A stretch of 38,462 bases of DNA, taken from Candidatus Nanohaloarchaea archaeon. GTDB lineage: Archaea > Nanohalarchaeota > Nanosalinia > Nanosalinales > Nanosalinaceae. The DNA lies in NCBI GenBank assembly GCA_046497485.1, contig JAWOFP010000040.1:1-38462 (forward strand). Direction: 5' to 3'. Numbering within the stretch: the first letter of the stretch is position 1; each line of letters opens with the position of its first letter. Positions 1 to 38,462 of the stretch are shown piece after piece. Position numbers and translations under genes: made by a program. Below the pieces are notes generated by a model, which did no database searches, was not told the origin of the DNA, and worked only from the letters and a program-made list of their open reading frames with translations.

Positions 1-19
1 TGTAAATTAAAGTATATAC

Positions 20-250
20 ATGCCTGAGCTTGATGAGAATGAGGTAATAGAAAAGGCAGATTTTGCCGATAAAAGGGATCTGGCAAAGGAGTTCGATACC
101 TCTGTAGAAAAAGTAGAGGAACTGCTTTCAGATCAAGGCTTTTCGACTCTAAAGGATTTCTCAGATGAAAAAGAGGTACAGAAGACTCTAGATCTTAATT
201 ACGAGATTAAGGAACTGGAAAAACGCAAACTACAGGGCATATTTAGATAA
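20..250 (+). CDS. Small acidic hypothetical protein
   Basis: 76 aa ORF with halophile-type acidic composition; no family recognised. Confidence 0.5.
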   Translation: MPELDENEVIEKADFADKRDLAKEFDTSVEKVEELLSDQGFSTLKDFSDEKEVQKTLDLNYEIKELEKRKLQGIFR

Positions 251-398
251 AAATAGCAGTTTTCATTATAGGCAGAGTCAAAGAGCTCCTGAAGTCTACT
301 ATGAGTTCTTTGTTTTCCTCTCGGATCTTATCTGAGTTTTGAATGTTTGCGACTGCTGTTTCAAGCCGTTGTTTGTAATTGTGGTGGTCTTCTGTCAT
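243..398 (-). pseudogene. Possible N-terminal fragment of a tyrosine integrase
   Basis: Manual translation MTEDHHNYKQRLETAVANIQNSDKIREENKELIVDFRSSL...* (51 aa) recalls archaeal integrase N-termini (D-x-HNY..RL...I.EENKELI..F); ~90 nt downstream of tRNA-Leu; no catalytic domain. Confidence 0.4.
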
Positions 399-490
399 TT
401 TTTAGATGTCACAGTTTGATATACTTCAGAACTTCTGGCCGACCACTTTAAACACCGCGAATCGGTGCCGCACATGAGTAAACGTAGTTG

Positions 491-573
491 TGCGGGGGAC
501 AAGATTCGAACTTGCGAACGGCTACCCGACTGGCTCCTAAAGCCAGCGCCTTTGACCACTTGGCTACCCCCGC
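491..573 (-). tRNA. tRNA-Leu(TAG)
   Basis: Acceptor GCGGGGG/CCCCCGC-A type stem, anticodon arm CTGGC-TT-TAG-GA-GCCAG, long variable arm, GTTCGAATC T-loop. Confidence 0.96.
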
Positions 574-717
574 TTAGAGGCCTTACCAATCAAGATAATA
601 AGTTGGCAATATTATGTCAGCTATCGCCGCTGATATTGAAAATGGAGGCCTTTAGCTTTATTAATCAAATAGTCAGACGAGGTTACAGATAAAAGAATTT
701 TCAGCTCAACTAGGTTT

Positions 718-1212
718 ATGGAGTGGGAGGGCTTTGAAATAAGCAGAGAGCAGGATTCTTTCCAGGTAAAAGATGAAGGCTTTACTGTCGGCATCAATTT
801 TTCTGATACTTCAGATATCCAACTATTGAGTTCAGAAGAAACAGGCTCAGGAGAAGTTATTGTAGGGGTTGAAGGCCTTGAAGTGGACGGAGATTTCGAG
901 CCCTTGAATCCCAGTGAAATTGTCGATATTTTCGGTGTGATGATCAAAGGCTTTGAGGGAGAGGATATCTCATACTGGTTCAAGATGGGAACCACTAGTT
1001 TCTACTACTCTAGTAGGCCTGGAGATGACAAAGATATGAAATGGCTGGAGAGCAAGGTCGATGTGGCTTTCCTCAAAGTTGATGAAGACTCTATCCTTGA
1101 AGCAGTGAAGATCAAGCCTAGAATGATTGTTCCTTACGGCGGCTCCGATAGAGAAAGAGAAGAGTTCGCTGCAGAACTAAGGGATAGAAGCTTTGAAGTA
1201 AAGTTAATCTAG
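718..1212 (+). CDS. Degenerate metallo-beta-lactamase-fold-like protein
   Basis: C-terminus DVAFLKV...AVKIKPRMIVPYG...EEFAAEL resembles MBL-fold (UPF0173-like) C-termini; no HxHxDH motif. Confidence 0.5.
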   Translation: MEWEGFEISREQDSFQVKDEGFTVGINFSDTSDIQLLSSEETGSGEVIVGVEGLEVDGDFEPLNPSEIVDIFGVMIKGFEGEDISYWFKMGTTSFYYSSRPGDDKDMKWLESKVDVAFLKVDEDSILEAVKIKPRMIVPYGGSDREREEFAAELRDRSFEVKLI

Positions 1213-1217
1213 ACTTT

Positions 1218-2936
1218 TTATTTTACTGTAATTGACTTAGCTAAATTTCGAGGCTTGTCCGGATCGTTACCTTTTAATTTGGAGGTTTCATAGGCCAGTA
1301 ACTGGAACGGAATAATCTCCAGAATCTCTCTATTTTCGTCTTCCGGAACTTCTATGAAGTATTTGAAGTTATCTCTTCTTTCTAATCCTATTCCTATTAG
1401 GTCGGCTCCACGAGAACCTGCCTCAATCGCATTTGAAAGGGTAGCAGATTCATCGTCTGTCAGAAATGCAAATACTGGTACGCCTTCTTCAATCAATGAT
1501 AATGTGCCGTGTTTGAATTCTCCTCCTGGAAAGGCCTCTGAGTGAATATAGGATAGTTCTTTGAGTTTGAGTGAGGCCTCTTTTGCGAGTTCACAACCTC
1601 TGTTTCTACCTATGAAGTAGATATCGTCTTTTTCCGAGATGTATTGTGCTATCTGATTTATTTCTTCTCTGTTGTCTTCTAGCATTGGGTCGATCTTGTC
1701 TGATGTTTCAAGAAGCGAGTTTCTGGCTTCTTCTAGTCCTTTCTGCATTGTCAGCGATAATAGTTTGAGAACTGTTAGCTGGGCTGTGAAGGCCTTTGTA
1801 GATGCGACCCCTATCTCTGGGCCGGCGTTCACATACATGTTGTGGTGGCTGTTACGGGCGAGCGTTGAACCGACTACATTTACTGCTGAAAGTACAGGTG
1901 CATCGATCTTCTTTAATGCGGAAAGTAGGTCAGCAGTCTCCCCACTTTGACTAACTGCGATTACTAAGTCATCTTCTGAGACTTGATCCGCCATATACTC
2001 GAACTCATGGCTCTGCTCGGAGTAGGCCTCGATCCCTGCTTCTCTCAAGTATTTTGCCCCGAGATCTGCTGCAAAGCTTGCAGTTCCACAAGCAGTTAGG
2101 AATACTTTATCTGCTTCTTCGATCATTTCAACAGATTTTTCTACATCAGATTTATCCTGGAATACTGCTCTCTTAACTGTCTCGGACTGCTCAAGTATCT
2201 CCTTCTCCATGAAATGATTGTGTCCAGCTTTTGAGGCCTCTTCTGCATCCCACTCAATTTCCTGTATTTCAGGTTCGACCTCTTCACCCTCTCTGTACAG
2301 TTTTAATTCGTCTTCAATTATAGCAAACTCTCCATCCTCCAAAAATACTGCTTCTCTAGTGTGCTCTAAGAACGGATTCACATCTGATGCAACAAAAAAC
2401 TCTTCATCTCCTAGGCCTATAACTAGAGGCGATTCCTTTCTGTAGACTATCATTTCTCCTGATTCTAGGACTGCTGCAAATGCATAAGCACCCTCCAGTT
2501 TCTCAACTGATTTCTCTACCGCTCTCTTGAGGCCTTCTTCTCTTCTAATATGTTTTTTCAGTAAGTGTGGGATAACCTCAGTATCTGTATCGGACTTAAA
2601 CTTGTGTTCTCCGATTTCTTCTCTAAGTTCTTCGTGGTTTTCTATTATTCCGTTGTGTACTACTGCAATCTTTTCCTCTTCATCTGTGTGCGGGTGCGCA
2701 TTCTTGTCATTGACTCCTCCATGGGTCGCCCACCTTGTATGCCCAATACCAGTCTTTCCCTTGAATTCTGGTTCAAGTTCTTCTACTCGGCCTTCTTTTT
2801 TCTCGAGTTTGACTGAAGGATTTGATACTACAGCTATTCCAGATGAGTCATATCCTCTATACTCCAGCTTCTTTAGGCCTTTATGAATGAGCTCTGAGGC
2901 CTGTTCCTCTCCTTTGTAGCCGAATATTCCGCACAT
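1218..2936 (-). CDS. glmS: Glutamine--fructose-6-phosphate aminotransferase
   Basis: MCGIFG N-terminus, GHTRWATHG, SQSGETAD, C-terminal PRNLAKSITV. Confidence 0.98.
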   Translation of the reverse strand: MCGIFGYKGEEQASELIHKGLKKLEYRGYDSSGIAVVSNPSVKLEKKEGRVEELEPEFKGKTGIGHTRWATHGGVNDKNAHPHTDEEEKIAVVHNGIIENHEELREEIGEHKFKSDTDTEVIPHLLKKHIRREEGLKRAVEKSVEKLEGAYAFAAVLESGEMIVYRKESPLVIGLGDEEFFVASDVNPFLEHTREAVFLEDGEFAIIEDELKLYREGEEVEPEIQEIEWDAEEASKAGHNHFMEKEILEQSETVKRAVFQDKSDVEKSVEMIEEADKVFLTACGTASFAADLGAKYLREAGIEAYSEQSHEFEYMADQVSEDDLVIAVSQSGETADLLSALKKIDAPVLSAVNVVGSTLARNSHHNMYVNAGPEIGVASTKAFTAQLTVLKLLSLTMQKGLEEARNSLLETSDKIDPMLEDNREEINQIAQYISEKDDIYFIGRNRGCELAKEASLKLKELSYIHSEAFPGGEFKHGTLSLIEEGVPVFAFLTDDESATLSNAIEAGSRGADLIGIGLERRDNFKYFIEVPEDENREILEIIPFQLLAYETSKLKGNDPDKPRNLAKSITVK

Positions 2937-8986: not shown

Positions 8987-10573
8987 TCATCCAGTTATTT
9001 CATCTATTATCTCTATGGCTTTTTCATCTCCAATCGATATTATCAGTCTGGAAAGTCTTGGACCTTGCTCTCTGTTAAGTAGGGCCTGGTAGCTTGTGTT
9101 GAAGAATGCTCCGGTTCCCAACTCGGAATCTTTCTTAGCTTCAAAGATCTTTGAATCAAAGTCATCCTGATCTTCGTATCCTTGCTCGATTCTTTCTTTG
9201 AGAAGTTTTAAGGCCTCTAACTGATCTTCATCAAAGTCTCCTTCTGCGTCATAGTTAATCTGGTAGACATAATCTTCTGGTGCGTATTCACGGGCCCAGT
9301 TCTTCGCTCTCTCCAGTCTGTCAAGTACTCGTTCTACATCTTTCTCTGAAATATTTTCCGAGACATGATCGGTTCTTTTGAGTGATTCGATAGCTTTTGG
9401 GTCCCAGTCCTCTTCTGGAATAGTTTGAGCCACAAACGAAAGATGTTTGAAAGGTACTCTAACCGGTTTTTCTTCCGGAACTTCTACCGTTGCCAATTCA
9501 TAGACTCTTCTCTGATGCTCTTCCTTCCTCTCATTATCCATTTCTCCAGGATTGAAGTAGGCCTCTTCTATCCTGTCAAACTTGTCATATCTCTGGAAAA
9601 TCTCCTCGGACTCAAATGGAATTTCAAAGGCCTTATTCGGCTTAGTTCCCGAGAATAGGAATCTGATCATTTCAGGTGAATAGACTTTTTTCAGTTCGGA
9701 GATTGTGAAGACATATTCTCCACTGCTTGATGAAATCTTTGAACCGTCCTTTGTAACAAATTCATACATTTGGTGTACAGGCGGCTTTTTACCGTAGATT
9801 TCCTCTGCCAATTCGTTTCCTGTATCTCTTGATCCTCCTGAAGCGGAATGCTCTTTTCCTGCTGGCTCGAAATGGACATCCTCATACTTCCATCTCATTG
9901 GCCAGTCAATTCTCCAAGGCTGCTTTACATTTCCTTCCTCCTTGAAATTCAGTTGATTTTCTTCTTCACACTCTTTACAGTAGTAAGTTAGTGTGTATTC
10001 TCCGTCCCAGTCCTTTACTTCTGTGAAGTCCTTATCGCATTCTGTACAGTAGACTCTGATAGGATAGTAAGGAGTTTCAAGAGGCTCTTTTCGGTATTTA
10101 TCTAGTATTTCTTTGACTTTATCTCGTTTCTCTAGGCCTTTCTTGATTAAGTCTGTATATTCTGCTTTCTCAAAGTTTTTAGTCTGTCTAATGAACTCGA
10201 TGTCCATGTGCATGTCTTCAAGCTCTTCTTCGAGCTGTGATTCAAAGTGATCTGCGTAAGAGTCATGGCATCCTTCTGGATCAGGTACATGAGTCAATGG
10301 AAGGCCTAAATACTGTTCAAAGTCGTCAGGCACATTTGAAGGCACTTTCCTGAATCGGTCGTAATCGTCCCAAGAGTAGATAAATTTGACTTTTTCGCCT
10401 TTCTCTTTCAGTGATTTGACGACGAAGTCTGTTGTTATTATTTCTCTGAAGTTCCCGGCATGAACTATGCCTGAAGGCGAGATACCTGAGGCGCATACAT
10501 ATTCATCTTTTTCCGGGAACTCTTCTACAGTTTCTTCTGCTAACTGATCCGACCAAAACAGGGATTTACTCAT
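8987..10573 (-). CDS. lysS: Class I lysyl-tRNA synthetase
   Basis: SGISPSGIVHAGNFRE, DWPMRW, FEPAGKEH, KISSSSG. Confidence 0.97.
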   Translation of the reverse strand: MSKSLFWSDQLAEETVEEFPEKDEYVCASGISPSGIVHAGNFREIITTDFVVKSLKEKGEKVKFIYSWDDYDRFRKVPSNVPDDFEQYLGLPLTHVPDPEGCHDSYADHFESQLEEELEDMHMDIEFIRQTKNFEKAEYTDLIKKGLEKRDKVKEILDKYRKEPLETPYYPIRVYCTECDKDFTEVKDWDGEYTLTYYCKECEEENQLNFKEEGNVKQPWRIDWPMRWKYEDVHFEPAGKEHSASGGSRDTGNELAEEIYGKKPPVHQMYEFVTKDGSKISSSSGEYVFTISELKKVYSPEMIRFLFSGTKPNKAFEIPFESEEIFQRYDKFDRIEEAYFNPGEMDNERKEEHQRRVYELATVEVPEEKPVRVPFKHLSFVAQTIPEEDWDPKAIESLKRTDHVSENISEKDVERVLDRLERAKNWAREYAPEDYVYQINYDAEGDFDEDQLEALKLLKERIEQGYEDQDDFDSKIFEAKKDSELGTGAFFNTSYQALLNREQGPRLSRLIISIGDEKAIEIIDEITG

Positions 10574-10734
10574 GGGAAAAATTCAGGCCTCTAGATTTTT
10601 AACGCTGTCAGATTTTAGTCTTAAGATTTAAATTCGAGTTAATGTCAAGTTAAGATATGGAGATAGAATTTGAGTCGGTTGGAGGATCAGATTCAGATTT
10701 TAATAGAAAAAATGACATCAGCTTATTCTCTTTC

Positions 10735-12597
10735 CTATAGGAAATAATCTGAAACTTCCTCCATCTCACCCGCTTGAACCTTCCACAGCTTAGCATAGAT
10801 ACCGTCCTCTTCCAAGAGTTCTTCATGATTGCCTCTCTCAACAATCTTTCCATCATCCAATACAATTATTTTATCTGCATCTTTGATCGTTGAGAGCCTG
10901 TGAGCGATGGCTAAAACAGTCCTGTCCTGAGTTAGCTCTTCGATACCTTTCTGAATTTTGATCTCTGTCTCCGTATCAACATCACTTGTAGCTTCATCCA
11001 AGATGAGTATCTCAGGATCCTGAAGAATAGCTCTCGCAATACCGATTCTCTGTCTCTGCCCACCTGAAAGCTTGACGCCATCTTCTCCGACTTCAGAATC
11101 GTAACCTTCCGGAAGATCACCAATAAATTCGTGGGCCTGAGCCTTCTTGGCGGCCTCAACTACATCTTCCTTCGTAGCGTCCTCAACAGCATAAGCAATA
11201 TTCTCTTGAATACTTTCTGGGAACAGAACATTATCCTGGCTGACATAGCCTATAGAACTTCTCAAGCTCTTCAAATTAACATCTTGGATGTTCTGGTTAT
11301 CGACCCTGATTTCGCCTTCATCAATATTGTAAAACCTGAGCAAGAGCTTGACAACCGTGGATTTGCCCGCACCTGTGGGCCCGGCCAATGCTAGAGTCTC
11401 TTTAGAACCAATAGTAAAGTTCAAGTCTTCAACAACCGGCTCTTCATCGTATCCGAAAGTTACAGAATTATACTCTACTACACCCTCTCTTATCTGAAGA
11501 TCGGGCTTATCTTCGTCTTCCTCTTCTCTCTGACTTTGATCCATTAACCCAAAAACTCTTTCAGCAGACGCATAAGCCTCCTGATACATGTTCACAAAGT
11601 CGCCGAAGTTCGCCATCGGCCAGATAAACTCCTGAGTCAATAACATAAAAGTCACAAATTCACCCACGCTCAAATCACCAGTAAAGAAGAAAGGTGCTGT
11701 ATCATTTATCACCCAGTAACCTCCAACAATAAAAGTTAAGATAAATCCTGTACCGGCAAGAATCCTCATACCTGGATAGAACTTTATACGAGTCTTTATC
11801 GCACTCCAGTTGGTATCAAAGTACTGTTGAGATATTTTTTCAACTTCATCTTTTTCAAACTCTTCCATGGTAGAGGCCTTGATAACCTTAATACCGTCAA
11901 GATTGTTTTCTAGTAAAGAGTTAAGCTTCCCGACTGAATCCCTGACCTCGGAATAAATTGGTTGAACAGTTCTAACAAACCAGTATGTGAAAACGGCAAT
12001 TAATGGAGCAGCTACCAGTGAAACAAACGCCATTTGCCAATTTATCGAAAACAAGATAATCGAGATACCTAACATTGTAAAAACAATACGGACGAAAACA
12101 GTGGCTCCGCCGCTAAGAAACTCTTCTAAGTTATTAACATCATTGTTTAGTACGCTCATAAGTTCTCCAGAAGAGTTATTGTGGAAAAAATCCATGTTCA
12201 GATGTTGCATCGCATCATAGGTATCGACTCTTACATCGTGCTGAACTCTTTGAGCGAAAGCATTCAAACCATAGCCTCTCACCCAATTAAGAACTCCTTC
12301 AGCGATATAAGAAGCAACTATCAACCCTATTATCAAGTGAAACTGGCCTAACTGCGCTTCAGGAATAAAGGCCTCTGAAATCAAAGGAAGTGAAAGAGAT
12401 TCAGATCCAAAGACGGTATCAATAGCCGTACCAAAAAGAGTAGGAGGAATTAAGCTAATCAAGAACCCGAACATACCCCCAAATATTCCAAATGCCAAAA
12501 GTTCTTTCCGAGGCTTACCGTATTCCTTCAATAATCTGAGAATTGGATAATTAATTTCTTCTAAATCTGTATCAAGATCAGGTTCCTGCCCCGACAT
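10735..12597 (-). CDS. ABC exporter, fused permease/ATP-binding (MsbA-like)
   Basis: TM domain, GPTGAGKS, LSGGQRQR, ILDEATS, AHRLST. Confidence 0.95.
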   Translation of the reverse strand: MSGQEPDLDTDLEEINYPILRLLKEYGKPRKELLAFGIFGGMFGFLISLIPPTLFGTAIDTVFGSESLSLPLISEAFIPEAQLGQFHLIIGLIVASYIAEGVLNWVRGYGLNAFAQRVQHDVRVDTYDAMQHLNMDFFHNNSSGELMSVLNNDVNNLEEFLSGGATVFVRIVFTMLGISIILFSINWQMAFVSLVAAPLIAVFTYWFVRTVQPIYSEVRDSVGKLNSLLENNLDGIKVIKASTMEEFEKDEVEKISQQYFDTNWSAIKTRIKFYPGMRILAGTGFILTFIVGGYWVINDTAPFFFTGDLSVGEFVTFMLLTQEFIWPMANFGDFVNMYQEAYASAERVFGLMDQSQREEEDEDKPDLQIREGVVEYNSVTFGYDEEPVVEDLNFTIGSKETLALAGPTGAGKSTVVKLLLRFYNIDEGEIRVDNQNIQDVNLKSLRSSIGYVSQDNVLFPESIQENIAYAVEDATKEDVVEAAKKAQAHEFIGDLPEGYDSEVGEDGVKLSGGQRQRIGIARAILQDPEILILDEATSDVDTETEIKIQKGIEELTQDRTVLAIAHRLSTIKDADKIIVLDDGKIVERGNHEELLEEDGIYAKLWKVQAGEMEEVSDYFL

Positions 12598-18290: not shown

Positions 18291-18776
18291 ATGAATCCGA
18301 TAAACGACCCCTTGAATTTTGGAGACGACGACATTGAGAATCCGCCAGGTAAGACCACTGGAGATATTAAGTATCCTACGCCAGACCGTGAATATCCTGT
18401 TACCGATGGCGGAGTTCAATCAGATCCATCTCAGATTTCAGGTATCGAAGAAAGTCTAACTCCAGAAGAAGTGCCTATCGAAGACTTACTTGAAATGCTT
18501 CCTGAAGAACAGAGAAGACTCCAAGATAAGAAAGGTTATACTCCTAGAGGCCTGATGAAGGCCGCAGAAAACGCTTTAGAACACTCTTTTTATACAGCAG
18601 ATCAGACAGTTTCAGGCACAAATTACAGCATCAGACAGTTAGCACAAGACAGTTCTGCAGAAAGGGCTCATGACGCTTTAGAAAAATTGCGAAGAGAATA
18701 TTTCGATAGATTTGACTTGAGCATAGATAGAGAAGACACAGTAATAGAAATGCCATTCTACAGGCCTAAAGAATAA
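18291..18776 (+). CDS. Orphan acidic hypothetical protein
   Basis: 161 aa, Pro-rich N-terminus; TTTATAAA promoter near 18259. Confidence 0.7.
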   Translation: MNPINDPLNFGDDDIENPPGKTTGDIKYPTPDREYPVTDGGVQSDPSQISGIEESLTPEEVPIEDLLEMLPEEQRRLQDKKGYTPRGLMKAAENALEHSFYTADQTVSGTNYSIRQLAQDSSAERAHDALEKLRREYFDRFDLSIDREDTVIEMPFYRPKE

Positions 18777-18796
18777 TCAAAAATTCAACTAAGAAA

Positions 18797-18874
18797 AGGT
18801 TTGGACTCTGTGCCTTTTCACACCCCGAATCACGTTAAAGGCATTAAAGTCAACGCTCTCTATGTTTAACACTG
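18797..18874 (-). ncRNA. Structured repeat copy 1, candidate small RNA
   Basis: Near-identical to 19537-19617; TGCCTTT/AAAGGCA stem; TATA-like box ~23 nt upstream on the minus strand. Confidence 0.55.
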
Positions 18875-18988
18875 CTGGGAAAAAGATTTAAGTTATTATA
18901 TACTCGAGACAGATTGGAGTAATTATTCTAGTCTGAAGATAGATATAGAAATGAAGAAATTGATGGTAAAAAATTACAGAATTGTCAA

Positions 18989-19408
18989 CTACAGCGCCAT
19001 TTCGTCTACTGAGTGACCCCAGTAATATTCTAAATTTAGATCTTCTGCTTCATTCATGACCTTATCTTCTGCTTCCTCGAGAGCTCCTACAGCATCCTCA
19101 AGTGTATAGGATTCTCCTATCATCCAAGCAGGGTCATCAAATTGGTTTGAATGCCTTTTAAGATATCTCTTTGCCGATTGATATGCATTATCTGCAGCAT
19201 CTGGATCGCCTCTTGAGAGATGTAGAACTGTTTTTCCTAAATCAATTCCTAAATCGTACATCTCTTCCTCTGATTTAGTTTGAAAACCTAAGCTTCTCAT
19301 CACAGAATTTGCTCCGTATTGAGCATCTGTAGCTGATAGAGGTTCGTGCCGTTGTTCAGATTTTACAGTTTTGTAAACTTCTTCTTTGACAGATTCTGGT
19401 TTATTCAT
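18989..19408 (-). CDS. Orphan helical hypothetical protein
   Basis: Lies between the two repeats; start MNKPES at 19408 preferred. Confidence 0.65.
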   Translation of the reverse strand: MNKPESVKEEVYKTVKSEQRHEPLSATDAQYGANSVMRSLGFQTKSEEEMYDLGIDLGKTVLHLSRGDPDAADNAYQSAKRYLKRHSNQFDDPAWMIGESYTLEDAVGALEEAEDKVMNEAEDLNLEYYWGHSVDEMAL

Positions 19409-19536
19409 AATTTTACCCTTATATTTACTACTTAGTAACAACATTTTAAATATGTTTCCCTGAACCATATTTTAGCCAAGATAATCTATAGAGATTACAA
19501 TCCGAATTACTCAAAAAGCAATCTTGAATACAGTAT

Positions 19537-19617
19537 AGGTTTGGACTCTGTGCCTTTTCACTCCCCGAACACGGGTTAAAGGCATTACAGCCAACGCTCT
19601 CTATGTTTTTTACACTG
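19537..19617 (-). ncRNA. Structured repeat copy 2, candidate small RNA
   Basis: Shares AGGTTTGGACTCTGTGCCTTTTCAC, TTAAAGGCATTA and CAACGCTCTCTATGTTT with copy 1. Confidence 0.55.
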
Positions 19618-19678
19618 TTAAACAAAGTTTTAATTAGCTTAGTTTTATACCAAGCCCTACAAATATTCGGTCTCGAAC

Positions 19679-20659
19679 TTAGAGAGATTCTTCTTCAAGT
19701 CTTTCTATAATCCCTTCTCTCATTTCTGCGTGTGTTTCTTCATCGAACTGTGAACCCCAGTTGGCGAATCCAGCAGCAAGCCAGGCAGTCGTGGCAAACC
19801 TATAAACTTCTCGCCTCTCATCAAATCCTTCATCAATCGAGTTGTTCTGCCTATAGCCCTCGTAAAGATTCTCTCTCAAGGATTCTTTGGTTTCATCATC
19901 CTTAAAGTGCAAATCCCAATCTATCAGCAAGTATTCTGCCCTTGCCAAGTCGTATTCGTTATGCCCTATTCTTGGATGACTCCAATCTATGAAACCTGTA
20001 ACTTCATCTCCTTCAACAAGCAGATTGTCAAGTCGGTTATCCGAGTGGTTAAGGACAAGTTCTGGTTCTTCAGGTATTCGCTCTCGTATTTCTGCTTCTG
20101 GCGTTTCTATCTCCACAGGTTCTTCCCACTTATCCTCTACAATATCTGCCCAAGCATCAATTGTGCCCTGTAGCGACCATGTCCATTTCTCTGCGTCATC
20201 CGTGGTTTGAAGTTCGCCATCCTCTGCAGAAAGTAGTCCGTAGTTCTCAAAGGATGTTGGAATATTGTGTATCTTACCGAGAATTTCTCCGTATTTATAC
20301 ATCAGGTTGCCAAGTTGCTCGTTTGACAAGTCGTGCTTTATTTTATCTGGGTTCTCCCCTGTCAGTTTCTCCATCACGTAGAACGAGTTCTCATAATCTT
20401 CCTCAGAAAAGTCTTTGTAAATTATTTCAGGAGAAGGAACATAAGTATTATTTGCGACTAATTCGTAGATTTTGGGTTCGGCTCTAAACCAGCCTATCTC
20501 GTTTTCTTCATTAGTATGAACTTTGAGAATATATTGTTCGTCTTTGGATTCAAGCTTATAGATCGTGTTCAAGCCCTCATCTACAGGCGTCCAGTCATAA
20601 CTGTCGCCCATCTCACCTTCAACTTGTCCTTTTAGCTTTTCCAAACCTGATTCGCCCAT
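19679..20659 (-). CDS. Aminoglycoside phosphotransferase (APH)-family kinase
   Basis: YILKV, HSDNRLDNLL, FIDWS, YDLA. Confidence 0.9.
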   Translation of the reverse strand: MGESGLEKLKGQVEGEMGDSYDWTPVDEGLNTIYKLESKDEQYILKVHTNEENEIGWFRAEPKIYELVANNTYVPSPEIIYKDFSEEDYENSFYVMEKLTGENPDKIKHDLSNEQLGNLMYKYGEILGKIHNIPTSFENYGLLSAEDGELQTTDDAEKWTWSLQGTIDAWADIVEDKWEEPVEIETPEAEIRERIPEEPELVLNHSDNRLDNLLVEGDEVTGFIDWSHPRIGHNEYDLARAEYLLIDWDLHFKDDETKESLRENLYEGYRQNNSIDEGFDERREVYRFATTAWLAAGFANWGSQFDEETHAEMREGIIERLEEESL

Positions 20660-20757
20660 ATTTACTATTTCTTATTCGAGATTATAAAACTTTCGATATT
20701 TTTGTCACCGCATGGTAAATACGATATCAGAACAGTGATTCGAATACGGGGTAAGTT

Positions 20758-20831
20758 TGGACTCTTCGGGATTTGAACCCGAGGCCTCTTCCCTGCCAAG
20801 GAAGCGTTCTGCCAGACTGAACTAAGAGCCC
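20758..20831 (-). tRNA. tRNA-Ala(GGC)
   Basis: Acceptor GGGCTCT/AGAGTCC-A with G3:U70, anticodon arm CTTCC-TT-GGC-AG-GGAAG. Confidence 0.96.
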
Positions 20832-23442: not shown

Positions 23443-24189
23443 ATGAAAAACATTAATGGAAAGACGGCAATAATTACAGGAGCCTCCTCAGGAATCGGAG
23501 AGGCAACAGCCCACAAACTAGCGGAAAACCAGGCCTCAGTAGTTCTCGCATCCAGAAGCAAGGAAAAACTGGAAGGAATAGCAGATGAGATCGAGGAAAA
23601 ACATGGAGTCAAGACAAAGGTTATTCCGACGGATGTAACGGATGAAAAAGAAGTAGAGAATCTTTTCGAGAAAACTCAGAAAGAATTTGGAGAAATAGAT
23701 ATAGTCATCAGTAACGCAGGCCTCGCGATGAGCGGAGAAGTAGAAGAGATGCCGACAGAACACTACAGAAAGAATAATGGAGTTAATATTGATGGAATGT
23801 TCTTCACAGGTCGAGAAGCAATACCTTACCTGAAAGAAACAGAAGGAAATCTGATCTTCCTCGGCAGCATCGCAGGAAAATATCCTAGAGGAGGGAACCC
23901 AGTCTATGCGGCTTCGAAGGCCTGGACAATAAGCTTTACGAAAAACCTCTCAGCACAGATCGGAGATTCAGGAGTAGCAGTAACAGTTGTTAATCCTTCA
24001 GAAGTCCGGACCGACTTCAACTCAGAAGAAGGAACAGCCTTCAAAGAAGCCTTCGAGGAAGGATCAGTTACTGAGCCAGAAAGTATCGCTGAAGGAATTC
24101 TGTTTGCGGCAAAGCAGGAAAGCACCAACACCGTCGAAGAATTAGATCTATTTAGAAGAGATAAGTTAAGCGATATGGAATTAGGATAG
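23443..24189 (+). CDS. SDR-family oxidoreductase
   Basis: TGASSGIG, NAG, YAASK. Confidence 0.95.
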   Translation: MKNINGKTAIITGASSGIGEATAHKLAENQASVVLASRSKEKLEGIADEIEEKHGVKTKVIPTDVTDEKEVENLFEKTQKEFGEIDIVISNAGLAMSGEVEEMPTEHYRKNNGVNIDGMFFTGREAIPYLKETEGNLIFLGSIAGKYPRGGNPVYAASKAWTISFTKNLSAQIGDSGVAVTVVNPSEVRTDFNSEEGTAFKEAFEEGSVTEPESIAEGILFAAKQESTNTVEELDLFRRDKLSDMELG

Positions 24190-24272
24190 AATGGTCCGCC
24201 CGCAACATCCAACCCTAATCAGGTTGGACGACACTACTTCTTCGACTTATGTTTAGTTATGAAAAAGAAAAC

Positions 24273-25202
24273 TTATCTATCTAGGATTTCTATGTCTAGT
24301 TTACTGTTGTACTTGTATCTTCGTCCTCGCCATACAAAATCCTTTCTAAATAATCCATAGAGCGAAAGGAAGGGAAAAAGCAAGAGTGAGGCATATCCTA
24401 GCAAGAAACTTGGTCTTCTCCCGCCTAGAAAACCATATACTCCCAGAAAACCAGTTGTTGAAAGCAAGAAAGATTCAAAAGGATATACTAAGCATCCTAT
24501 TGAGATAAGAATAAATCCTATAGTTAGGAAAATTGTTTTGATTGGTTCATGATATCTTACATGTTTCATGAAACGGGTTATTCTCTCTAGAGAGTCTTTG
24601 AATGTTTGATCTATCTTCACTCTTCTTGTTCTTCTAACTGTCTCTCCATCAAGATGTTCTGAAAGAAGCACATCGTCAGCTATAGTAGATTTTAGTTCTT
24701 TCAGGAATTTTTCCTCGTTGAAAGTATCTCTATCGAACATGACTGCTCCTCCCCATGCTTGATCCTCAAACCATGTTACAAACATTACTAGGGCATAAAT
24801 TGGTTCGGTAACGACACCAAGCGGGTTCTGACCTATGAAGAAGGGAAGTTCTGAGACAGCACCGTATTTGTCACAATCTTCATGTAGTGCTTCAAGCCAA
24901 TTATCGGGATGATGGAAATCATCATCAGTCCATACAACTCTATTGTTCTCAGCTTCATTCATCCCTTCAAAAATAGCATTAGCTTTTCCAGAACAACCTT
25001 CAGGTTCTCCAGCTACAATCAACCTGATATTTTCATTGGAAGCGAATACATCTGATTTTGCAATTTCATCCCCTTCAGAATCACAAACTACTAGAAGTTC
25101 GTCCTGTTCTCTTATCTGACTAGAAAGTTCACTGACTACATCGCCTTTTGAGAGAGTCGGCAAGATTACGCTAGTAGCTGGATAAATATTTTCTGAAGAC
25201 AT
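24273..25202 (-). CDS. GT2/GT21-like membrane glycosyltransferase
   Basis: SVILPT, SGKANA, WTDDD, WGG, DD, RxxRF, C-terminal TM helices and WRGRRY. Confidence 0.85.
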   Translation of the reverse strand: MSSENIYPATSVILPTLSKGDVVSELSSQIREQDELLVVCDSEGDEIAKSDVFASNENIRLIVAGEPEGCSGKANAIFEGMNEAENNRVVWTDDDFHHPDNWLEALHEDCDKYGAVSELPFFIGQNPLGVVTEPIYALVMFVTWFEDQAWGGAVMFDRDTFNEEKFLKELKSTIADDVLLSEHLDGETVRRTRRVKIDQTFKDSLERITRFMKHVRYHEPIKTIFLTIGFILISIGCLVYPFESFLLSTTGFLGVYGFLGGRRPSFLLGYASLLLFPFLSLYGLFRKDFVWRGRRYKYNSKLDIEILDR

Positions 25203-25271
25203 AGTTTAATCTAAAACTTGTAGGAATTAAAAACAAACTCGGTTTTCCGACCACTACAACCCTATTTGACA

Positions 25272-25395
25272 TGGTCCACCCGGGATTCGAACCCGGGACC
25301 GCCGCCTCTCTCGAGGTCAACAGACAGGCCTTTCCGGCGAATACTGTCTATTGGTCCTTATAAGGACGGTGCTCTAACCCCTGAGCTAGTGGACC
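25272..25395 (-). tRNA. tRNA-Ile(TAT) with a 51-nt intron at 37/38 (25308-25358)
   Basis: Acceptor GGTCCAC/GTGGACC-A; CCGTC-CT-TAT-A^intron^A-GGCGG; intron stem CAATAGACAG/CTGTCTGTTG; TTCGAAT T-loop. Confidence 0.88.
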
Positions 25396-27960: not shown

Positions 27961-29015
27961 AAGAATTTGTTCTGCCTCCAGCACTAGAAAAAGGAGATAA
28001 GATTGCTGTTGTTGGGGTTGGAAATGGACCTACTAACGATTTATTTCCTGAAGTATACGACTTGGGATTAGAGCGGCTAGAAGAAGTTTTTGATCTAGAA
28101 CCTGTTGAATATCCGACAGCCACAATGAGTATGGAGGAGAGAACAGAGAATCCTGAAAAGAGAACAGAGGAATTGATGGAGGCCTTCAGAGATGACGAGA
28201 TAAAAGGAGTAATCGCTCCAATAGGAGGTTCAGGCGAACAGATCAGAATACTCAAGCATCTTGATCCAGAAGTTCTGAAAAATAATCCTACAAGATTTTA
28301 TGGTTACAGCGATAACACCAGTCTCTGCCTTTATCTATGGAAGCATGGAATAGTCAGTTTTCAGGGACCTATGATAATGACTGAAATGGCTATGCAAGGA
28401 GAAATGCATGATTACACTGTAGAACACATTGAGAAAGCATTCTTTGAAGACAAGATTGGAAAAATAGAGGCGTCGGAAGAGTTCACTGACGAAACTTTAG
28501 AATGGGATAATCCTGAAAACCTAGAGAAATATAGAGAGATGGAAGAAAATCCCGGGTTGGAATGGTACAATGCTAACGGAGAAATAATTGAAGGCCGTAT
28601 CTGGGGAGGCTGTCTTGAAGTTGTAGAGATTAACCTTCAAGCAGATAAACCGCTTCCAAATCCAGAAGAATTAGAAGGCAAAATACTGGCTTTAGAGACC
28701 TCTGAAGAAATGCCAGAGGAACATTTTGTTGATCGTTTTATGATGGCTTTGGGAGAAAGAGGCCTACTAGAAAAGTTCTCTGCTATAATAGTTGGAAGAG
28801 CAAAAGCCCGGCATCATGAAGATCCGACACCAGAGGAACGAGATAAGTTCAGGGAAACGCAAAAACAGATAATCAAAAATAAAGTGGATGAATATGCTTC
28901 GGATACTCCTATCATATTTAATCTGAACTTCGGACATGCAGATCCTATTATTCCTTTACCAGTAGGCGGGAAAATCAGGATAGATACAGAAAACGAGGAA
29001 ATTGAACTGAAGTGA
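27957..29015 (+). CDS. S66 family LD-carboxypeptidase / MccF-like peptidase
   Basis: GYSDNT (Ser), LETSEE (Glu), FGHADP (His). Confidence 0.93.
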   Translation: MKEFVLPPALEKGDKIAVVGVGNGPTNDLFPEVYDLGLERLEEVFDLEPVEYPTATMSMEERTENPEKRTEELMEAFRDDEIKGVIAPIGGSGEQIRILKHLDPEVLKNNPTRFYGYSDNTSLCLYLWKHGIVSFQGPMIMTEMAMQGEMHDYTVEHIEKAFFEDKIGKIEASEEFTDETLEWDNPENLEKYREMEENPGLEWYNANGEIIEGRIWGGCLEVVEINLQADKPLPNPEELEGKILALETSEEMPEEHFVDRFMMALGERGLLEKFSAIIVGRAKARHHEDPTPEERDKFRETQKQIIKNKVDEYASDTPIIFNLNFGHADPIIPLPVGGKIRIDTENEEIELK

Positions 29016-29019
29016 TATC

Positions 29020-29757
29020 ATGACTGACGAAACACTGACTGATGAAGAGTTCTGGACAGAGTTCAAAAACCTGCTATTTGCCGAAGAAAAACTTGAATCT
29101 TCTAGAGAAGAGATCGAGAAGATAATTGAGTTAGCCGATTTAGAAGAAGGTTCAAAAGTACTTGATATGCCGTGTGGAGTCGGAAGACACAGCATAGAGC
29201 TCCAGAAAAAAGGCTTTGAGGTAGTTGGAGTTGACAAAACTTCTGAATATATTAAAGACGCAAAGCAGAAAGATGAATCAGACGAGATAGAGTTCGTTCA
29301 GGAAGATATGAAGGATTTCAGGAGGGAACGCAGTTTTGATGTCGTCCTGAATTGGTGGAACTCTTTCGGCTACTTTGAAGATAAAGGAGATGACCGACAG
29401 ATGCTCGAGAATATTTATACTTCTCTCAAGCAAGATGGAGTTTTAGTGATGGATCTATGGAGTAAGGAGTTAGCCGCTATGAACGATTTCTCCCCACACT
29501 GGTCGGAACAAGATGGCATCTACAACTTGGAGGAAGGACGGCCTAAAGATAACTGGAAGAAAGTAGAACGAACTTGGATAAAAGTAGAAGATGGAGAAAC
29601 AGCAGAATATACTTGGGAACAACGGCTTTACGCTGCTTCTGAACTTGAACAAATGCTGAAACAAGTTAGGTTCTCTAAAGTAAACTTCTATGGTAATGTA
29701 GAAGGCGATGATTTTGACGATGAAGCAGACAGACTAATCGTGGTGGCAGAAAAATGA
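29020..29757 (+). CDS. Class I SAM-dependent methyltransferase
   Basis: VLDMPCGVGRHS, NSFGYF. Confidence 0.92.
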   Translation: MTDETLTDEEFWTEFKNLLFAEEKLESSREEIEKIIELADLEEGSKVLDMPCGVGRHSIELQKKGFEVVGVDKTSEYIKDAKQKDESDEIEFVQEDMKDFRRERSFDVVLNWWNSFGYFEDKGDDRQMLENIYTSLKQDGVLVMDLWSKELAAMNDFSPHWSEQDGIYNLEEGRPKDNWKKVERTWIKVEDGETAEYTWEQRLYAASELEQMLKQVRFSKVNFYGNVEGDDFDDEADRLIVVAEK

Positions 29758-30719
29758 GCAGTTTAAGAGAAATTGCTGATGATAGAGGCCTTCAGATAGG
29801 TACCTGTGTTGATTATAGTGTTTGGAAGGATGATGAGGGATATAGAGATCTTATTGCTAAAGAGTTTAATCTTATTACTCCTGAGAGTTGTCTGAGCTGG
29901 AAATATATTCATCCTGAAAAGGACCAATTTGATTTTGAAAAGCCAGATGCATTAATTGATTTCGCTGAGGATAATGATATGACTGTTACAGGTATTCCTC
30001 TGGTCTGGCATATGGAGAACCCTAAATGGCTTGAAAATGGCGACTTCAGTTCGGAAGAACTTGAAGAAATCCTAGAAAACCACATAAAAACCGTTGTAAG
30101 CAGATATTCTGGCAGAATTGATGCCTGGACTGTGATAAATGAAGGGATAAATGACGATGGAGAGCTCAGAGAAAATCTCTGGCTGGAAACCCTCGCTGAA
30201 GACTACATTGAGAAAGCCTTCAGATGGGCCTCCAAGTATTCCAATGCTAAACTGTTCTACAACGAATATGGACTTCCATACGATGATGTGAAAAGAGAAG
30301 GAGTCTATCAGCTCCTGTCAGACCTGTTAGATAAAGGAGTTCCGATAGATGGTATCGGGTTACAGATGCACTTTATAGGAATAAAGGCCCCACCTAGCCA
30401 AGTTGCAGAAACTATTGAAAGGTTCCAAGAACTTGGGTTAGAAGTAAGGCTGACAGAGATGGATGTAGCATATCAAAAGGGGGAAGCACCTGAAAATATG
30501 GATGAGAAACAAGCCAAATGTTACAGAGATATTTTCCAAACTTGTTTAGAAAATGGGATTACAAATCTATCGGTTTGGGGTGTAAGAGACGGCGAATCTT
30601 GGATAAATCATTTCCAGGACTATAATGAGAAATACACTGATAGGCCTTTGCTTTTTGATAAGAATGGAGATAAGAAAAAGTCGTATAGAGAAGTTAAAAA
30701 GGCAATTTCCGAGCATTAA
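29754..30719 (+). CDS. GH10 endo-1,4-beta-xylanase-family glycoside hydrolase
   Basis: EFNLITPE, LVWH, WTVINE (acid/base), LFYNEY, IDGIGLQMH, LTEMD (nucleophile), VWG; no signal peptide. Confidence 0.93.
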   Translation: MSSLREIADDRGLQIGTCVDYSVWKDDEGYRDLIAKEFNLITPESCLSWKYIHPEKDQFDFEKPDALIDFAEDNDMTVTGIPLVWHMENPKWLENGDFSSEELEEILENHIKTVVSRYSGRIDAWTVINEGINDDGELRENLWLETLAEDYIEKAFRWASKYSNAKLFYNEYGLPYDDVKREGVYQLLSDLLDKGVPIDGIGLQMHFIGIKAPPSQVAETIERFQELGLEVRLTEMDVAYQKGEAPENMDEKQAKCYRDIFQTCLENGITNLSVWGVRDGESWINHFQDYNEKYTDRPLLFDKNGDKKKSYREVKKAISEH

Positions 30720-34154: not shown

Positions 34155-34156
34155 CC

Positions 34157-34817: not shown

Positions 34818-34828
34818 CTCATTTCTTA

Positions 34829-35074: not shown

Positions 35075-35089
35075 ACAGAGATATTTGAG

Positions 35090-36469: not shown

Positions 36470-36498
36470 AATTCTTCTCCTCTAATTTAATTATCGAT

Positions 36499-36765: not shown

Positions 36766-36854
36766 AGATAACTGTTGGAATAGAATGTTTTTTAGGTTTG
36801 AATGATGTTAGAAAATCAGGTCAGTGAACAGTTATGAACGGTTCAACAATAAGG

Positions 36855-36862
36855 TTTATAAA
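36855..36862 (+). promoter_or_regulatory. TATA box upstream of the hairpin array
   Basis: TTTATAAA. Confidence 0.55.
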
Positions 36863-36884
36863 GCGGCGTAGAAAATGTTAGTAT

Positions 36885-37060
36885 AGTAAGAACTACATTT
36901 GTTCGCTTGGGCGCGAACGATTCAGATCGAACTTGACTCGCGGGCACGAGATCAGGTTCATGCGACATATCGAATCGAACTTTGGGCAAAGTTCGAACAA
37001 GTATCATGTGTTGAAAGTCTTGGGCAAGACTTCAAGTTATTCTAAGGTAGAATTACCTAC
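36885..37060 (+). ncRNA. Multi-hairpin element with four GGGC-capped stems (candidate ncRNA or ftsZ leader)
   Basis: Hairpins at 36899-36920, 36929-36959, 36975-36996 and 37011-37035, plus a fifth at 37045-37058; G-U pairs on the + strand. Confidence 0.6.
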
Positions 37061-37065
37061 GCCGA

Positions 37066-37073
37066 TTTAAAAA
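37066..37073 (+). promoter_or_regulatory. TATA box proximal to ftsZ
   Basis: TTTAAAAA about 35 nt before the ATG. Confidence 0.5.
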
Positions 37074-37107
37074 GGTTAGGTATATCGATACACGGGAGAA
37101 AAGTATA

Positions 37108-38172
37108 ATGGAATCTATAATCGACAACGCTCAAAATACAGAAAAGACCGAAAATCTAGAAGATGTAAAAGATGCTAAAATTGTAGTTGTAGGCGTTGGA
37201 GGAGCTGGCAACAACCAGGTAACAAGAATACAGAATAAGGAAATTGAAGGCGCAGAAACAGTAGTAATCAATACAGATAAACAACACCTACAGATGAGCT
37301 CAGCTGACCGCAAAATACTGGTCGGAAGAGATCTTACAAAAGGCCTCGGAGCAGGAGGACAGCCAGAAAAAGGCGCAAGATCCGCAGAAGAAAACCGAGC
37401 CGAACTAAGAAACCTGTTCAAAGACGCAGACATGGTCTTCCTTACCGCAGGAATGGGAGGAGGAACGGGGACAGGAGCCTCACCAGTACTCGCAGAAATC
37501 GCAAAGAAAGAAGACTGCATAGTAATCGGAACAGTCACAATGCCTTTCGAAATTGAAGGCGCAAGAATGAGCAAAGCAGAAGAAGGCCTCTACAAACTAA
37601 GACAGCATGTAGACACAGCAATCGTAATTGAAAACGACAAACTACTTGATATCGCAGGAGACATGCCTCTTGACCAGGCCTTCGGAGTAGCAGATGAATT
37701 AATTACAACAATGATCAAGGGAATCACAGAGACAATCTCCCAGCCAAGCTTGGTTAACTTAGATTACGCAGATGTTCAGGCAATCATGAACGAAGGCGGA
37801 GTAGCAGTTGTAGGATACGGGGAGTCCGACACCAACAACAAAGGAAAGGAAGCGATCCACGAAGCACTCTCCAATCCACTACTTGATGTAGAGTTCGATG
37901 GAGCAAACGGCGCACTACTTCATGTAGCAGGAGGCACAGACCTCACATTGAACGAAATCAACGAAGTAGGACAACATGTAAAATCCAAGCTTGACAACAA
38001 CGCCCAGACAATCTGGGGTGCAAGAGTCAAAGACGAACTACAGGGAACACTCCAAGTAATCTCAATCATCACAGGAGTAGAAAGCCCTTACATCCTTGGA
38101 GATGTCGAGGAAGAACAGGAAACTGAAGTAACAGGAGATGTAAACGACTTAGGACTGGAAGTGATGAAGTAA
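37108..38172 (+). CDS. ftsZ: Cell division protein FtsZ
   Basis: VGVGGAGNN, GMGGGTGTGASP, NLDYADV. Confidence 0.98.
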   Translation: MESIIDNAQNTEKTENLEDVKDAKIVVVGVGGAGNNQVTRIQNKEIEGAETVVINTDKQHLQMSSADRKILVGRDLTKGLGAGGQPEKGARSAEENRAELRNLFKDADMVFLTAGMGGGTGTGASPVLAEIAKKEDCIVIGTVTMPFEIEGARMSKAEEGLYKLRQHVDTAIVIENDKLLDIAGDMPLDQAFGVADELITTMIKGITETISQPSLVNLDYADVQAIMNEGGVAVVGYGESDTNNKGKEAIHEALSNPLLDVEFDGANGALLHVAGGTDLTLNEINEVGQHVKSKLDNNAQTIWGARVKDELQGTLQVISIITGVESPYILGDVEEEQETEVTGDVNDLGLEVMK

Positions 38173-38176
38173 CAAA

Positions 38177-38462
38177 GTTAGAGGCCTAACGGCCTGTAAA
38201 ACTCATGCTAGCAGGAAGCCAGAGGAAGGCCTCAAAGAGCCGGGAAGTATATTCAAAACCCCCTCCCCCCCACTTTCCCGGGAGACTGGAGGCCTACCTC
38301 AAATTCCTGCAATAAAATCTATATTAAGGAAAGGCCCTTTCAACCGCCTGGTAAAAACCGCCGATCTACTATACCCTGCTGGCGGCTGGAATCTACGCCG
38401 GCATCGATCTCATGCCGCTGTCTGAACGTATCGACCTAATTGCAGGCAAGAGCATCAGGACC
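38177..38462. ncRNA. GC-rich structured non-coding region running off the window end
   Basis: Long interrupted hairpin 38211-38310 with a C-rich loop; further hairpins GAAAGG/CCTTTC and CGGCAT/ATGCCG; no ORF in the track. Confidence 0.4.

Follow-up and report, generated by a model that had tools for sequence, protein, structure and literature searches.

The hexamer AGGCCT is reiterated along the whole genome of a Candidatus Nanohaloarchaea archaeon (GenBank assembly GCA_046497485.1), and a lineage-specific, directional force acting on the DNA itself, by point substitution, is well supported as its source. The stretch that we analyzed, hereafter the window, is contig JAWOFP010000040.1 at its full length of 38,462 nucleotides; it is contig C32 of the genome labelled G000 (967,558 bases in 66 contigs, guanine-plus-cytosine (GC) content 41.5%, completeness 97%). 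The window contained 114 copies of AGGCCT, against 8.54 ± 2.95 in 100 dinucleotide-preserving shuffles, the largest of which held 17, so that none of the 100 reached the observed count. A previous model-made reading of the same letters, made without database searches (the sequence-only reading), had claimed an excess of this word across the window and about 40 sites in the first 10 kb; both claims were borne out, with 41 sites counted there, including those it had named at 578, 646, 873 and 1015.

The density in the window, 2.96 sites per kb, compares with 1.8 to 5.8 per kb across all 66 contigs. The whole genome harbors 3249 sites where base composition predicts 153.8 (observed-to-expected ratio, O/E, 21.1), a mean frequency of one per 298 bp. 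AGGCCT is the top hexamer of G000 and only words that overlap it come close; the next palindrome, CTGCAG, has an O/E of 2.15. As many as 70% of the GGCC tetramers fall within AGGCCT, and none of its 18 one-mismatch neighbors lies below 0.77 of expectation. The flanks are near background, the sole departure being T at 39% three or four bases upstream and A at the mirror positions. The Markov null proposed in the sequence-only reading gave a divided answer: the excess remained under the base-composition and dinucleotide nulls but was gone at maximal order (O/E 1.09). The latter value is uninformative because the 5-mers AGGCC and GGCCT already hold the same signal, which makes that null circular.

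To place the sites relative to genes, we used our own crude set of 975 greedily chosen, non-overlapping open reading frames (ORFs) of at least 100 amino acids, drawn up without a gene caller and covering 88.7% of the genome, and the class called non-coding by this set takes in small genes and RNA genes. Within the ORFs, 520 sites lie in frame 0 (AGG CCT), 970 in frame 1 (xAG GCC Txx) and 1380 in frame 2 (xxA GGC CTx), while 359 are non-coding and 20 straddle an ORF end. Shuffling synonymous codons, with each protein and the codon usage of each gene kept, left 399 ± 19 sites (largest of 30 shuffles, 451) where 2875 are observed, an excess of 5.2-, 8.0- and 7.8-fold in frames 0, 1 and 2, respectively; shuffling the order of codons left 187 ± 13. 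The excess was therefore neither confined to one reading frame nor removed by codon and dipeptide control, the two outcomes that the sequence-only reading had named as fatal to its claim.

The same reading had placed the word in coding and non-coding DNA alike, and the two densities are indeed equal, at 3.37 and 3.35 sites per kb. Because non-coding DNA has a lower GC content (37.4%) at a like density, the O/E there is as high as 27.9. The density is flat over 300 bases on either side of ORF starts and stops, 25-bp bins ranging from 2.3 to 4.5 per kb, and no tie to promoters or gene ends was seen around them. Even the sites claimed in a tRNA-Ala gene and in a tRNA-Ile intron were found (Table 1). 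The second of these tRNA genes went uncalled by ARAGORN but matches the Rfam tRNA model (52.9 bits), its anticodon loop CUUAUA being followed by a 52-nt insert; the site was placed within the intron by position arithmetic. AGGCCT is a true highly iterated palindrome, neither a repeat element nor a by-product of codon usage.

The word has come close to filling the room that the proteins leave for it. We called a position compatible when its peptide can be spelled with AGGCCT by synonymous change alone; in the ORFs of G000, 2861 of 4285 such positions carry the hexamer, with an occupancy of 77% for Arg-Pro, 65% for [EKQ]-Ala-[CFLSWY] and 64% for x-Gly-Leu. In the unenriched relative G024 it is present at 21 of 792 aligned compatible positions. 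The peptides themselves are over-represented in G000 and in two further enriched genomes, G010 and G022. The O/E of Arg-Pro is 1.64, 1.56 and 1.30 in G000, G010 and G022, respectively, against 0.80 in G024; that of Gly-Leu is 1.44, 1.44 and 1.26, against 1.01; and that of [EKQ]-Ala-[CFLSWY] is 1.73, 1.89 and 1.31, against 0.98.

The direction of this change was read from 508 reciprocal-best orthologue pairs of G000 and G024. At aligned positions, Arg-Pro of G000 is paired with some other dipeptide of G024 in 227 cases, against 44 cases of the converse; with Lys-Pro as the G024 partner the counts are 48 and 8, and for Gly-Leu against any other dipeptide they are 747 and 357. The control pair G000/G010, in which both genomes are enriched, is near 1:1 (147:110 for Arg-Pro, 467:486 for Gly-Leu). 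Proteins have been bent towards AGGCCT-compatible peptides in one direction, and hundreds of fixed amino-acid replacements create the word, for instance from Lys-Pro to Arg-Pro and from Gly-Ile or Gly-Val to Gly-Leu. The rate of alignment gaps is 3.4–4.4% at AGGCCT sites and 3.8–4.3% in the background; since it is not raised, the sites arise by substitution, and an origin by insertion of the hexamer was rejected.

Genomes of the same genus share just 64–73% identity across protein-coding stretches, so that silent positions are probably saturated, and an occupancy of 64–77% argues for active upkeep. Where both proteins allow the word, joint occupancy has an odds ratio of 2.26 for G000/G022 and 2.84 for G000/G010, at a divergence too deep to part conservation from parallel saturation or shared neighbor effects. 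In an alignment of metagenome contigs, 40 of 3434 variant places were inspected and 0 fell within AGGCCT, which is too few to use; coverage or its lack in those runs carries no information.

AGGCCT sites repel each other within about 75 bp. Between neighboring sites in G000, gaps shorter than 10 bp occur 6 times (107 expected), gaps of 10–20 bp 26 times (104 expected), gaps of 20–30 bp 42 times (100 expected) and all gaps below 50 bp 197 times (502 expected); the gap distribution is non-geometric and more even than random (coefficient of variation 0.90). The occupancy of compatible positions rises with the distance to the nearest other site, from 13% at 6–12 bp to 30% at 12–20 bp, about 51% at 20–40 bp, about 61% at 40–75 bp and 71–78% at 75–300 bp. 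The density of site pairs in G000 is 0.15 of baseline at 6–12 bp and 0.9–1.0 past 100 bp, without overshoot. The same depletion was found in G010 (0.28 at 6–12 bp, 0.93 at 100–150 bp) and in G022 (0.25 at 6–12 bp, about 1.0 by 75 bp).

Generic words do not behave in this way. GC-rich non-palindromic hexamers paired with their reverse complements, which could form hairpins, stand at 0.97 to 1.21 of baseline when pooled, and GC-rich direct 6-bp repeats at 1.03 to 1.51. As neither class is depleted, the short-range exclusion is specific to AGGCCT, and avoidance of hairpins or of slippage was rejected as its cause. By our own integration of these figures, the effective exclusion predicted by the models amounts to about 50 bp to either side of a site. 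A 10.05-bp periodicity of pair distances was also set aside as not motif-specific: its power of 12.7 was reached by 0.4% of Poisson replicates, but control words reach 10.8. A weak periodicity of about 10 bp is shared by many common hexamers in G000, G010 and G022 (median power 3.35 and maximum 10.8 over 60 control words).

In genes as in spacers, the density of sites is buffered at close to 3.4 per kb. Counts have a variance-to-mean ratio of 0.70–0.76 in windows of 250–1000 bp and of 1.05, which is Poisson-like, at 5 kb; in G010 the standard deviation of counts per 10 kb equals the Poisson value. Across 217 genes of at least 900 nt, the density in G000 increases only slightly with the supply of compatible positions in the orthologous G024 gene (slope 0.245, intercept 2.98 per kb), and genes with fewer than 1.5 compatible positions per kb in that orthologue still have 3.26 sites per kb.

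To see how far the trait extends, we surveyed 70 species genomes of the phylum with the reversed word TCCGGA as control, the comparison with related genomes that the sequence-only reading had called for. The enrichment proved lineage-specific: AGGCCT is 4.3 to 17 times as frequent as the control word in 13 of the 70 genomes and at most 1.7 times as frequent in the remaining 57. All 13 belong to one family, in four genera, namely the five genomes of the window's genus (one only 5-fold), all three in each of two other genera, and two of six in a fourth, g2. In g2 the word abounds in G005 and G060 but not in G059, G061, G062 or G063. The strength of enrichment varies, G004 standing at 5.0 times the control word and G057 at 4.3 times, and five genomes avoid AGGCCT (G020, G021, G030, G040 and G044, at 0.13–0.17 of the control word). 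Unenriched relatives with similar GC content and proteins hold 97 sites in 973 kb.

A tree of a single gene, that for lysyl-tRNA synthetase (LysRS), was built from 30 sequences, with the other genomes of the window's genus left out. In this tree, the enriched G005 and G010 are sisters adjoined by the unenriched G023, and G000 and G022 lie in another clade, amid five unenriched genomes. The trait would thus be present in at least two clades, as well-supported branches of the LysRS tree force at least two changes of state. The LysRS gene of the window, which is of class I (8987–10573), was not found in four genomes of the same genus (68–92% complete) and is present in 32 more distant ones.

The stringency of the word differs between lineages, as expected of a sequence-reading protein. 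In G022, the variants of the site with one wrong outer base (NGGCCT) are enriched 3.2- to 3.6-fold and the full site 12.2-fold, the two enrichments being roughly multiplicative, while the inner variants stand at 0.4–1.4 times expectation. In G000 and G010, the outer-base variants stand at 0.96 to 1.9 and the full site at about 20. Inner one-mismatch variants are as frequent as in the unenriched genome or slightly rarer.

Several other words are depleted in these genomes. The tetramer ACGT has an O/E of 0.15 in G000 and 0.14 in G024, hexamers that contain it being the rarest words, and the most depleted tetramers of G010 are GCGC, CGCG, TTAG and CTAA (O/E 0.25–0.31), suggesting lineage-specific pressure from restriction enzymes. 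G024 avoids GGCC (O/E 0.33; GGGCCC 0.05) and encodes a C5 methylase of 338 amino acids (G024:C1:840527-841480), about the length of M.HaeIII. To judge from its sequence, this genome probably has an active GGCC restriction-modification system, opposite to the enrichment in G000.

Sites may also accumulate with residence. G000 genes with homologues in all three relatives (G010, G022 and G024) carry 3.63 sites per kb and orphan genes 2.75, a difference from which it appears that resident DNA gains AGGCCT with time and newly acquired DNA starts site-poor. An island of G022 of about 29 kb (G022:C1:205000-234000) is of normal GC content but nearly devoid of the word; in its 10-kb windows at 210–230 kb, 4 and 1 sites were counted, where the mean is 23.6. 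It encodes a Toprim and MCM primase-helicase of 1059 amino acids and a P-type ATPase with 85% identity to the unenriched G024 and 70–71% to enriched genomes, and it is probably an element integrated from an unenriched nanohaloarchaeon. A second site-poor island of G022, at about 717–727 kb, carries a type III restriction-modification pair and has a GC content of 37–39%.

The sequence-only reading had suggested looking for a methyltransferase of GGCC or AGGCCT, and a shared one found no support: each family searched (PF00145, PF01555, PF02384, PF02086 and PF07669) is patchy or missing among the enriched genomes, although every enriched genome examined has some DNA methyltransferase. Profile searches of this kind cannot predict the specificity of an enzyme and would miss novel families. 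G000 has a C5 methylase (PF00145, 226 bits; contig C53, 98–1264, minus strand) whose second- and third-best matches among solved structures are chains of M.HaeIII, over the catalytic part. Its divergent neighbor is a McrB-type AAA_5 ATPase (1322–2728, plus strand, 469 amino acids, open at the 3′ end), and C53 has the lowest AGGCCT density of all G000 contigs (1.83 per kb); the locus is probably an acquired defence island. PF00145 gave no match over the cut-off in G002, G004, G005, G010 or G022, and among 41 genomes searched, the G000 enzyme matches six unenriched ones and no other enriched one.

The remaining families were no more uniform. PF01555 exceeds the cut-off solely in G022, inside the site-poor type III restriction-modification island; PF02384 is strong solely in G005 and G022; PF02086 was absent from the five genomes searched; and large PF07669 genes occur solely in G010 and G005. 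The G010 member (G010:C1:490951-491995), an Eco57I-type methyltransferase/restriction gene, has an in-frame TAA and may be a pseudogene. Weak matches to PF01555 and PF02384 in all enriched genomes were discarded, as the G000 copy (C62, 324 amino acids) is a THUMP plus UPF0020 RNA methyltransferase; the ORFs of like size in the other enriched genomes are presumably the same gene. A search of G000 with the Vsr family (PF03852) gave no match.

For agents of other kinds, we compared gene content by tblastn of 975 G000 ORFs, 993 G022 ORFs and 399 small G000 ORFs against G022, G024 and the first 760 kb of G010 (68% of that genome), and ran Pfam on 30 candidates. The genes that G000, G022 and the covered part of G010 share and that G024 lacks comprised small-molecule methyltransferases, transporters, an integrase, Ogt, DnaG and proteins of no known function; G024 proved ill-suited as the unenriched reference, since many genes are missing from its genus. 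Six candidates were then surveyed more widely and rejected. An unknown protein of 215 amino acids (13 of 41 genomes), Ogt (25 of 41), DnaG (44 of 70), a putative winged-helix protein of 68 amino acids (39 of 70) and a Methyltransf_25 protein (48 of 70) are common in unenriched genomes, and a putatively nuclease-like protein of 251 amino acids is present in 11 of 70 genomes but only 4 of the 13 enriched ones.

What, then, makes the word? The sequence-only reading had proposed a process driven by methylation and repair, or a protein-binding chromosome signal, particular to this lineage. The lineage-specific force on the DNA stands, since the word overrides codons, shifts amino acids, is equally dense in non-coding DNA and is enriched in 13 of 70 genomes; the part that is not supported is a shared methyltransferase. 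Our leading, if tentative, explanation is a sequence-reading protein that biases repair or gene conversion towards AGGCCT. Such a lineage-specific protein, probably a symmetric dimer, would recognize the exact hexamer and bias mismatch correction or gene conversion towards it, and substitutions that create sites would be fixed far more often than those that destroy them, chromosome-wide. For the short-range interference, either steric exclusion or co-conversion over a short repair tract could be responsible. We infer a bias of repair or conversion rather than selection, and an agent that may move between lineages. A drive of this sort can be started by a single gene, which would account for the recurrence of one and the same word and for thousands of individually trivial positions having become saturated.

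A number of results weigh against a repair or conversion bias. No DNA methyltransferase family, among the models searched, is common to the enriched genomes, the gene-content screen gave no obvious site-specific DNA enzyme, and all six surveyed candidates are also common in unenriched genomes, so that no agent was found. The one-mismatch neighbors are just slightly lower than in the unenriched genome, and no drain of precursors is visible. Simple mutation bias does not predict the interference, for which co-conversion or steric exclusion must be added. Selection on density fits some results at least as well as a uniform bias per site: coding and non-coding densities are equal though the shift in synonymous odds (about 70-fold by our own arithmetic) exceeds the non-coding O/E of 28, density depends weakly on compatible positions, and counts are under-dispersed. 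The joint occupancy between enriched genomes could, in addition, reflect selection at the level of sites.

Selection on the density and spacing of sites, with about one in every few hundred bp and none of them selected individually, is the somewhat unlikely but serious competitor. Here AGGCCT would bind an abundant protein with a nucleoid-associated, condensin-loading or self-marking role. Equal coding and non-coding densities, a buffered density even in genes poor in compatible positions, under-dispersed counts, a motif-specific depletion of the size of a protein footprint, occupied positions common to enriched genomes and the lack of a tie to promoters or gene ends all agree with it, and for HIP1, the highly iterated palindrome of cyanobacteria, site conservation and a role in chromosome structure were argued by Xu et al. 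2018 (PMC5861425). It would, however, require effective selection at thousands of sites of tiny effect, fixing hundreds of amino-acid changes in a symbiont with a small genome, and with at least two clades and a mixed genus, the binder and its thousands of sites would have to co-evolve repeatedly. The screen contained no binder gene confined to enriched genomes, long-range regularity is lacking at 5 kb and in the 10-kb counts of G010, and the pair-distance curve reaches 1 without overshoot.

The methyltransferase ratchet of Elhai's model, in which GGCC or AGGCCT is marked and methylation-dependent mismatch repair converts near-sites, seems improbable to us, as the searches revealed no methyltransferase common to the enriched genomes. 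C5 methylases classically target GGCC, the core of the word, G000 has an enzyme resembling M.HaeIII over its catalytic part, some DNA methyltransferase is present in each enriched genome examined, and the deviations in G022 concentrate on the first and last letters, as in HIP1 (PMC4390886). Yet that enzyme matches six unenriched genomes and no other enriched one, it sits on the contig of lowest density beside an ATPase in what looks like a defence island, the G022 and G010 candidates lie in a site-poor island and in a gene with an in-frame stop, respectively, and Vsr was not found in G000. That the array is a relic, its driving agent lost and its sites decaying, is very improbable: no agent was found and the strength of enrichment varies down to the values of G004 and G057, but the high occupancy at so low a same-genus identity argues for active maintenance, and inner one-mismatch neighbors are not above the unenriched genome, contrary to decay. 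We likewise regard as distinctly improbable an uptake or recombination signal, that is, preferential import of AGGCCT-bearing DNA acting as molecular drive and as a same-species mark. Spacing more even than random, sites in coding DNA at a cost to proteins, site-poor acquired islands and lineage-specific abundance are all in its favor, but a 6-base palindrome with near-random flanks discriminates poorly, and the interference extends over about 75 bp, whereas imported fragments are of kilobase size. The known uptake signals lack palindromic symmetry and measure 9–12 bases, and nanohaloarchaea are not known to undergo natural transformation. We give next to no credence to a side effect of base composition or of codon or dipeptide usage, or to a small mobile element in multiple copies. 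The maximal-order Markov model reproduces the count and frame 2 has the most sites; that model is circular, and the synonymous shuffle, the non-coding O/E, the near-random flanks, the unraised gap rate at sites and the scarcity of AGGCCT in unenriched relatives refute the composition and mobile-element readings.

A bolder version of an active agent is speculative and rather doubtful. It would be an archaeal system of a kind not yet known, carried by a transferable gene, whose protein writes and polices a methylation-free mark with one site per ~300 bp and never two per footprint. The mark would be a self-label or a chromatin scaffold for a symbiont that has its cytoplasm in contact with the host, and the system would have been gained independently in several lineages.

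The closest known parallel is HIP1 (GCGATCGC), which is over-represented 15 to 300-fold in cyanobacteria (PMC5861425), a range that includes the 21-fold excess of AGGCCT. As far as the HIP1 literature available to us goes, both are exact short palindromes present in coding DNA and in spacers, without a promoter link and with some relatives lacking the word, and both have an unsettled cause for which the same two ideas, a repair ratchet or a chromosome-level function, are discussed. The concentration of deviations on the outer letters (PMC4390886) is seen in the enriched G022 but not in G000 or G010. AGGCCT differs in being archaeal (a DPANN symbiont with a 1-Mb genome), in being a 6-mer rather than an 8-mer, in the absence of a pair of cognate orphan methyltransferases common to the enriched genomes, and in its higher density, one per 298 bp against the 'more than one per gene' given for some cyanobacteria. 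Its motif-specific exclusion under 75 bp has no counterpart described for HIP1 in the accessible parts of PMC4390886 and PMC5861425. For HIP1, a periodic distribution on a scale of 10–90 kb has been reported as well.

Calothrix PCC 7103 has an alternate palindrome, GGCGCC, with an O/E of 15.5 in the related strain Calothrix D253 (PMC4390886). Like AGGCCT, it is a GC-rich palindrome of six letters and, in the sections of that source available to us, stands far out from other words in one lineage while being missing from relatives; it coincides with the gain of two GrCGyC methyltransferases (PMC4390886), and for AGGCCT no such coincidence was found. In the literature accessible to us, we found no description of AGGCCT as an over-represented word in nanohaloarchaea, nor of such a palindrome in an archaeon. 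Nanohaloarchaeal methylomes (PMC10266531, PMC11001535) report only GDGCHC methylation, their main text, so far as available, being without GGCC or AGGCCT. Restriction-site avoidance has the opposite sign to what is seen in G000, where AGGCCT is over-represented.

In enterobacteria, very-short-patch repair by Dcm and Vsr makes CCWGG more frequent and CTWGG less so, and to our knowledge it is the only well-understood mechanism of sequence-specific correction towards a short palindrome. Its effect in E. coli is small, not 20-fold. It differs further from the present case in that Vsr was not found in G000, that no methylase of the Dcm type turned up in the other enriched genomes searched, and that T:G to C:G correction alone cannot create the outer A:T pairs of AGGCCT. 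The DNA uptake sequence (DUS), the uptake signal sequence (USS) and Chi are over-represented genome-wide, lie in genes at a cost to proteins, have a more even spacing than chance would give and are self-marking; they are non-palindromic, 8–12 bases long and about ten times sparser than AGGCCT.

Within the window, several genes and gaps are poor in sites (Table 1). Metagenome contigs from three runs (X1, X2 and X3) join position 10591 to about 12654 with 23–26 other letters between, 2062 bases being skipped in X2, which suggests that some strains are without the ABC transporter gene and that its residence in G000 has been shorter. The window also encodes a GH10 xylanase (306 bits), without a homologue in the three relatives compared, and an LD-carboxypeptidase that is present in the enriched G022 and G010 and not in G024; positions 29754–30719 and 27957–29015 cover these two genes, which are unusual accessory functions for a nanohaloarchaeon.

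Table 1 AGGCCT sites, site-poor stretches and associated genes in the window.
Feature	Position	Strand	Remarks
AGGCCT array	1..38462	.	114 sites, mean spacing ~337 bp; one stretch of the genome-wide array of 3249
Non-coding AGGCCT past tRNA-Leu(TAG)	578..583	.	5 bp past the end of the tRNA gene (490-573, minus)
ABC transporter gene	10735..12597	-	2 sites, 1.07 per kb; Pfam ABC_membrane and ABC_tran
Longest site-free stretch of the window	18768..20781	.	2,020 bp from one site start to the next; ranks fourth by length among the gaps of the genome
ORF inside the longest site-free stretch	18989-19468		0 sites; without homologue in the three relatives
APH-type phosphotransferase ORF	19679-20659		0 sites; Pfam APH
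AGGCCT in tRNA-Ala(GGC) gene	20782..20787	.	Gene 20758-20831, minus; site before GGGTTCAAATCCC, read as T arm; sequence GAAGAGGCCTCGGGTTC
Site-free 1.4-kb stretch	23924..25325	.	
Family-2 glycosyltransferase gene in the 1.4-kb stretch	24273-25202	-	0 sites, GC 38%; homologue solely in G010 of the three relatives
AGGCCT in 52-nt intron of tRNA read as Ile(UAU)	25326..25331	.	Gene 25272-25395, minus

By analogy, AGGCCT may be regarded as the archaeal counterpart of HIP1. In cyanobacteria, such palindromes have resisted explanation for some 20 years (PMC5861425), and the question at stake is whether such words are made by biased repair or kept by selection. The nanohaloarchaea would offer a better test bed, with genomes of 1 Mb, a hexamer that saturates most of its allowed positions and a trait that is on or off within one genus. 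In these organisms the trait appears decoupled from any shared methyltransferase. Any proposed mechanism has to account quantitatively for the exclusion at short range and for the buffering of density. The proteome has been measurably reshaped here by a DNA word, AGGCCT-compatible peptides standing at 1.4 to 1.7 times expectation in G000 and, with G010 and G022 counted in, at 1.3 to 1.9 times, a bias of consequence for phylogenetics and for the modelling of protein families in these organisms. In practical terms, AGGCCT flags foreign DNA in enriched genomes and could aid the binning of nanohaloarchaeal metagenome contigs.

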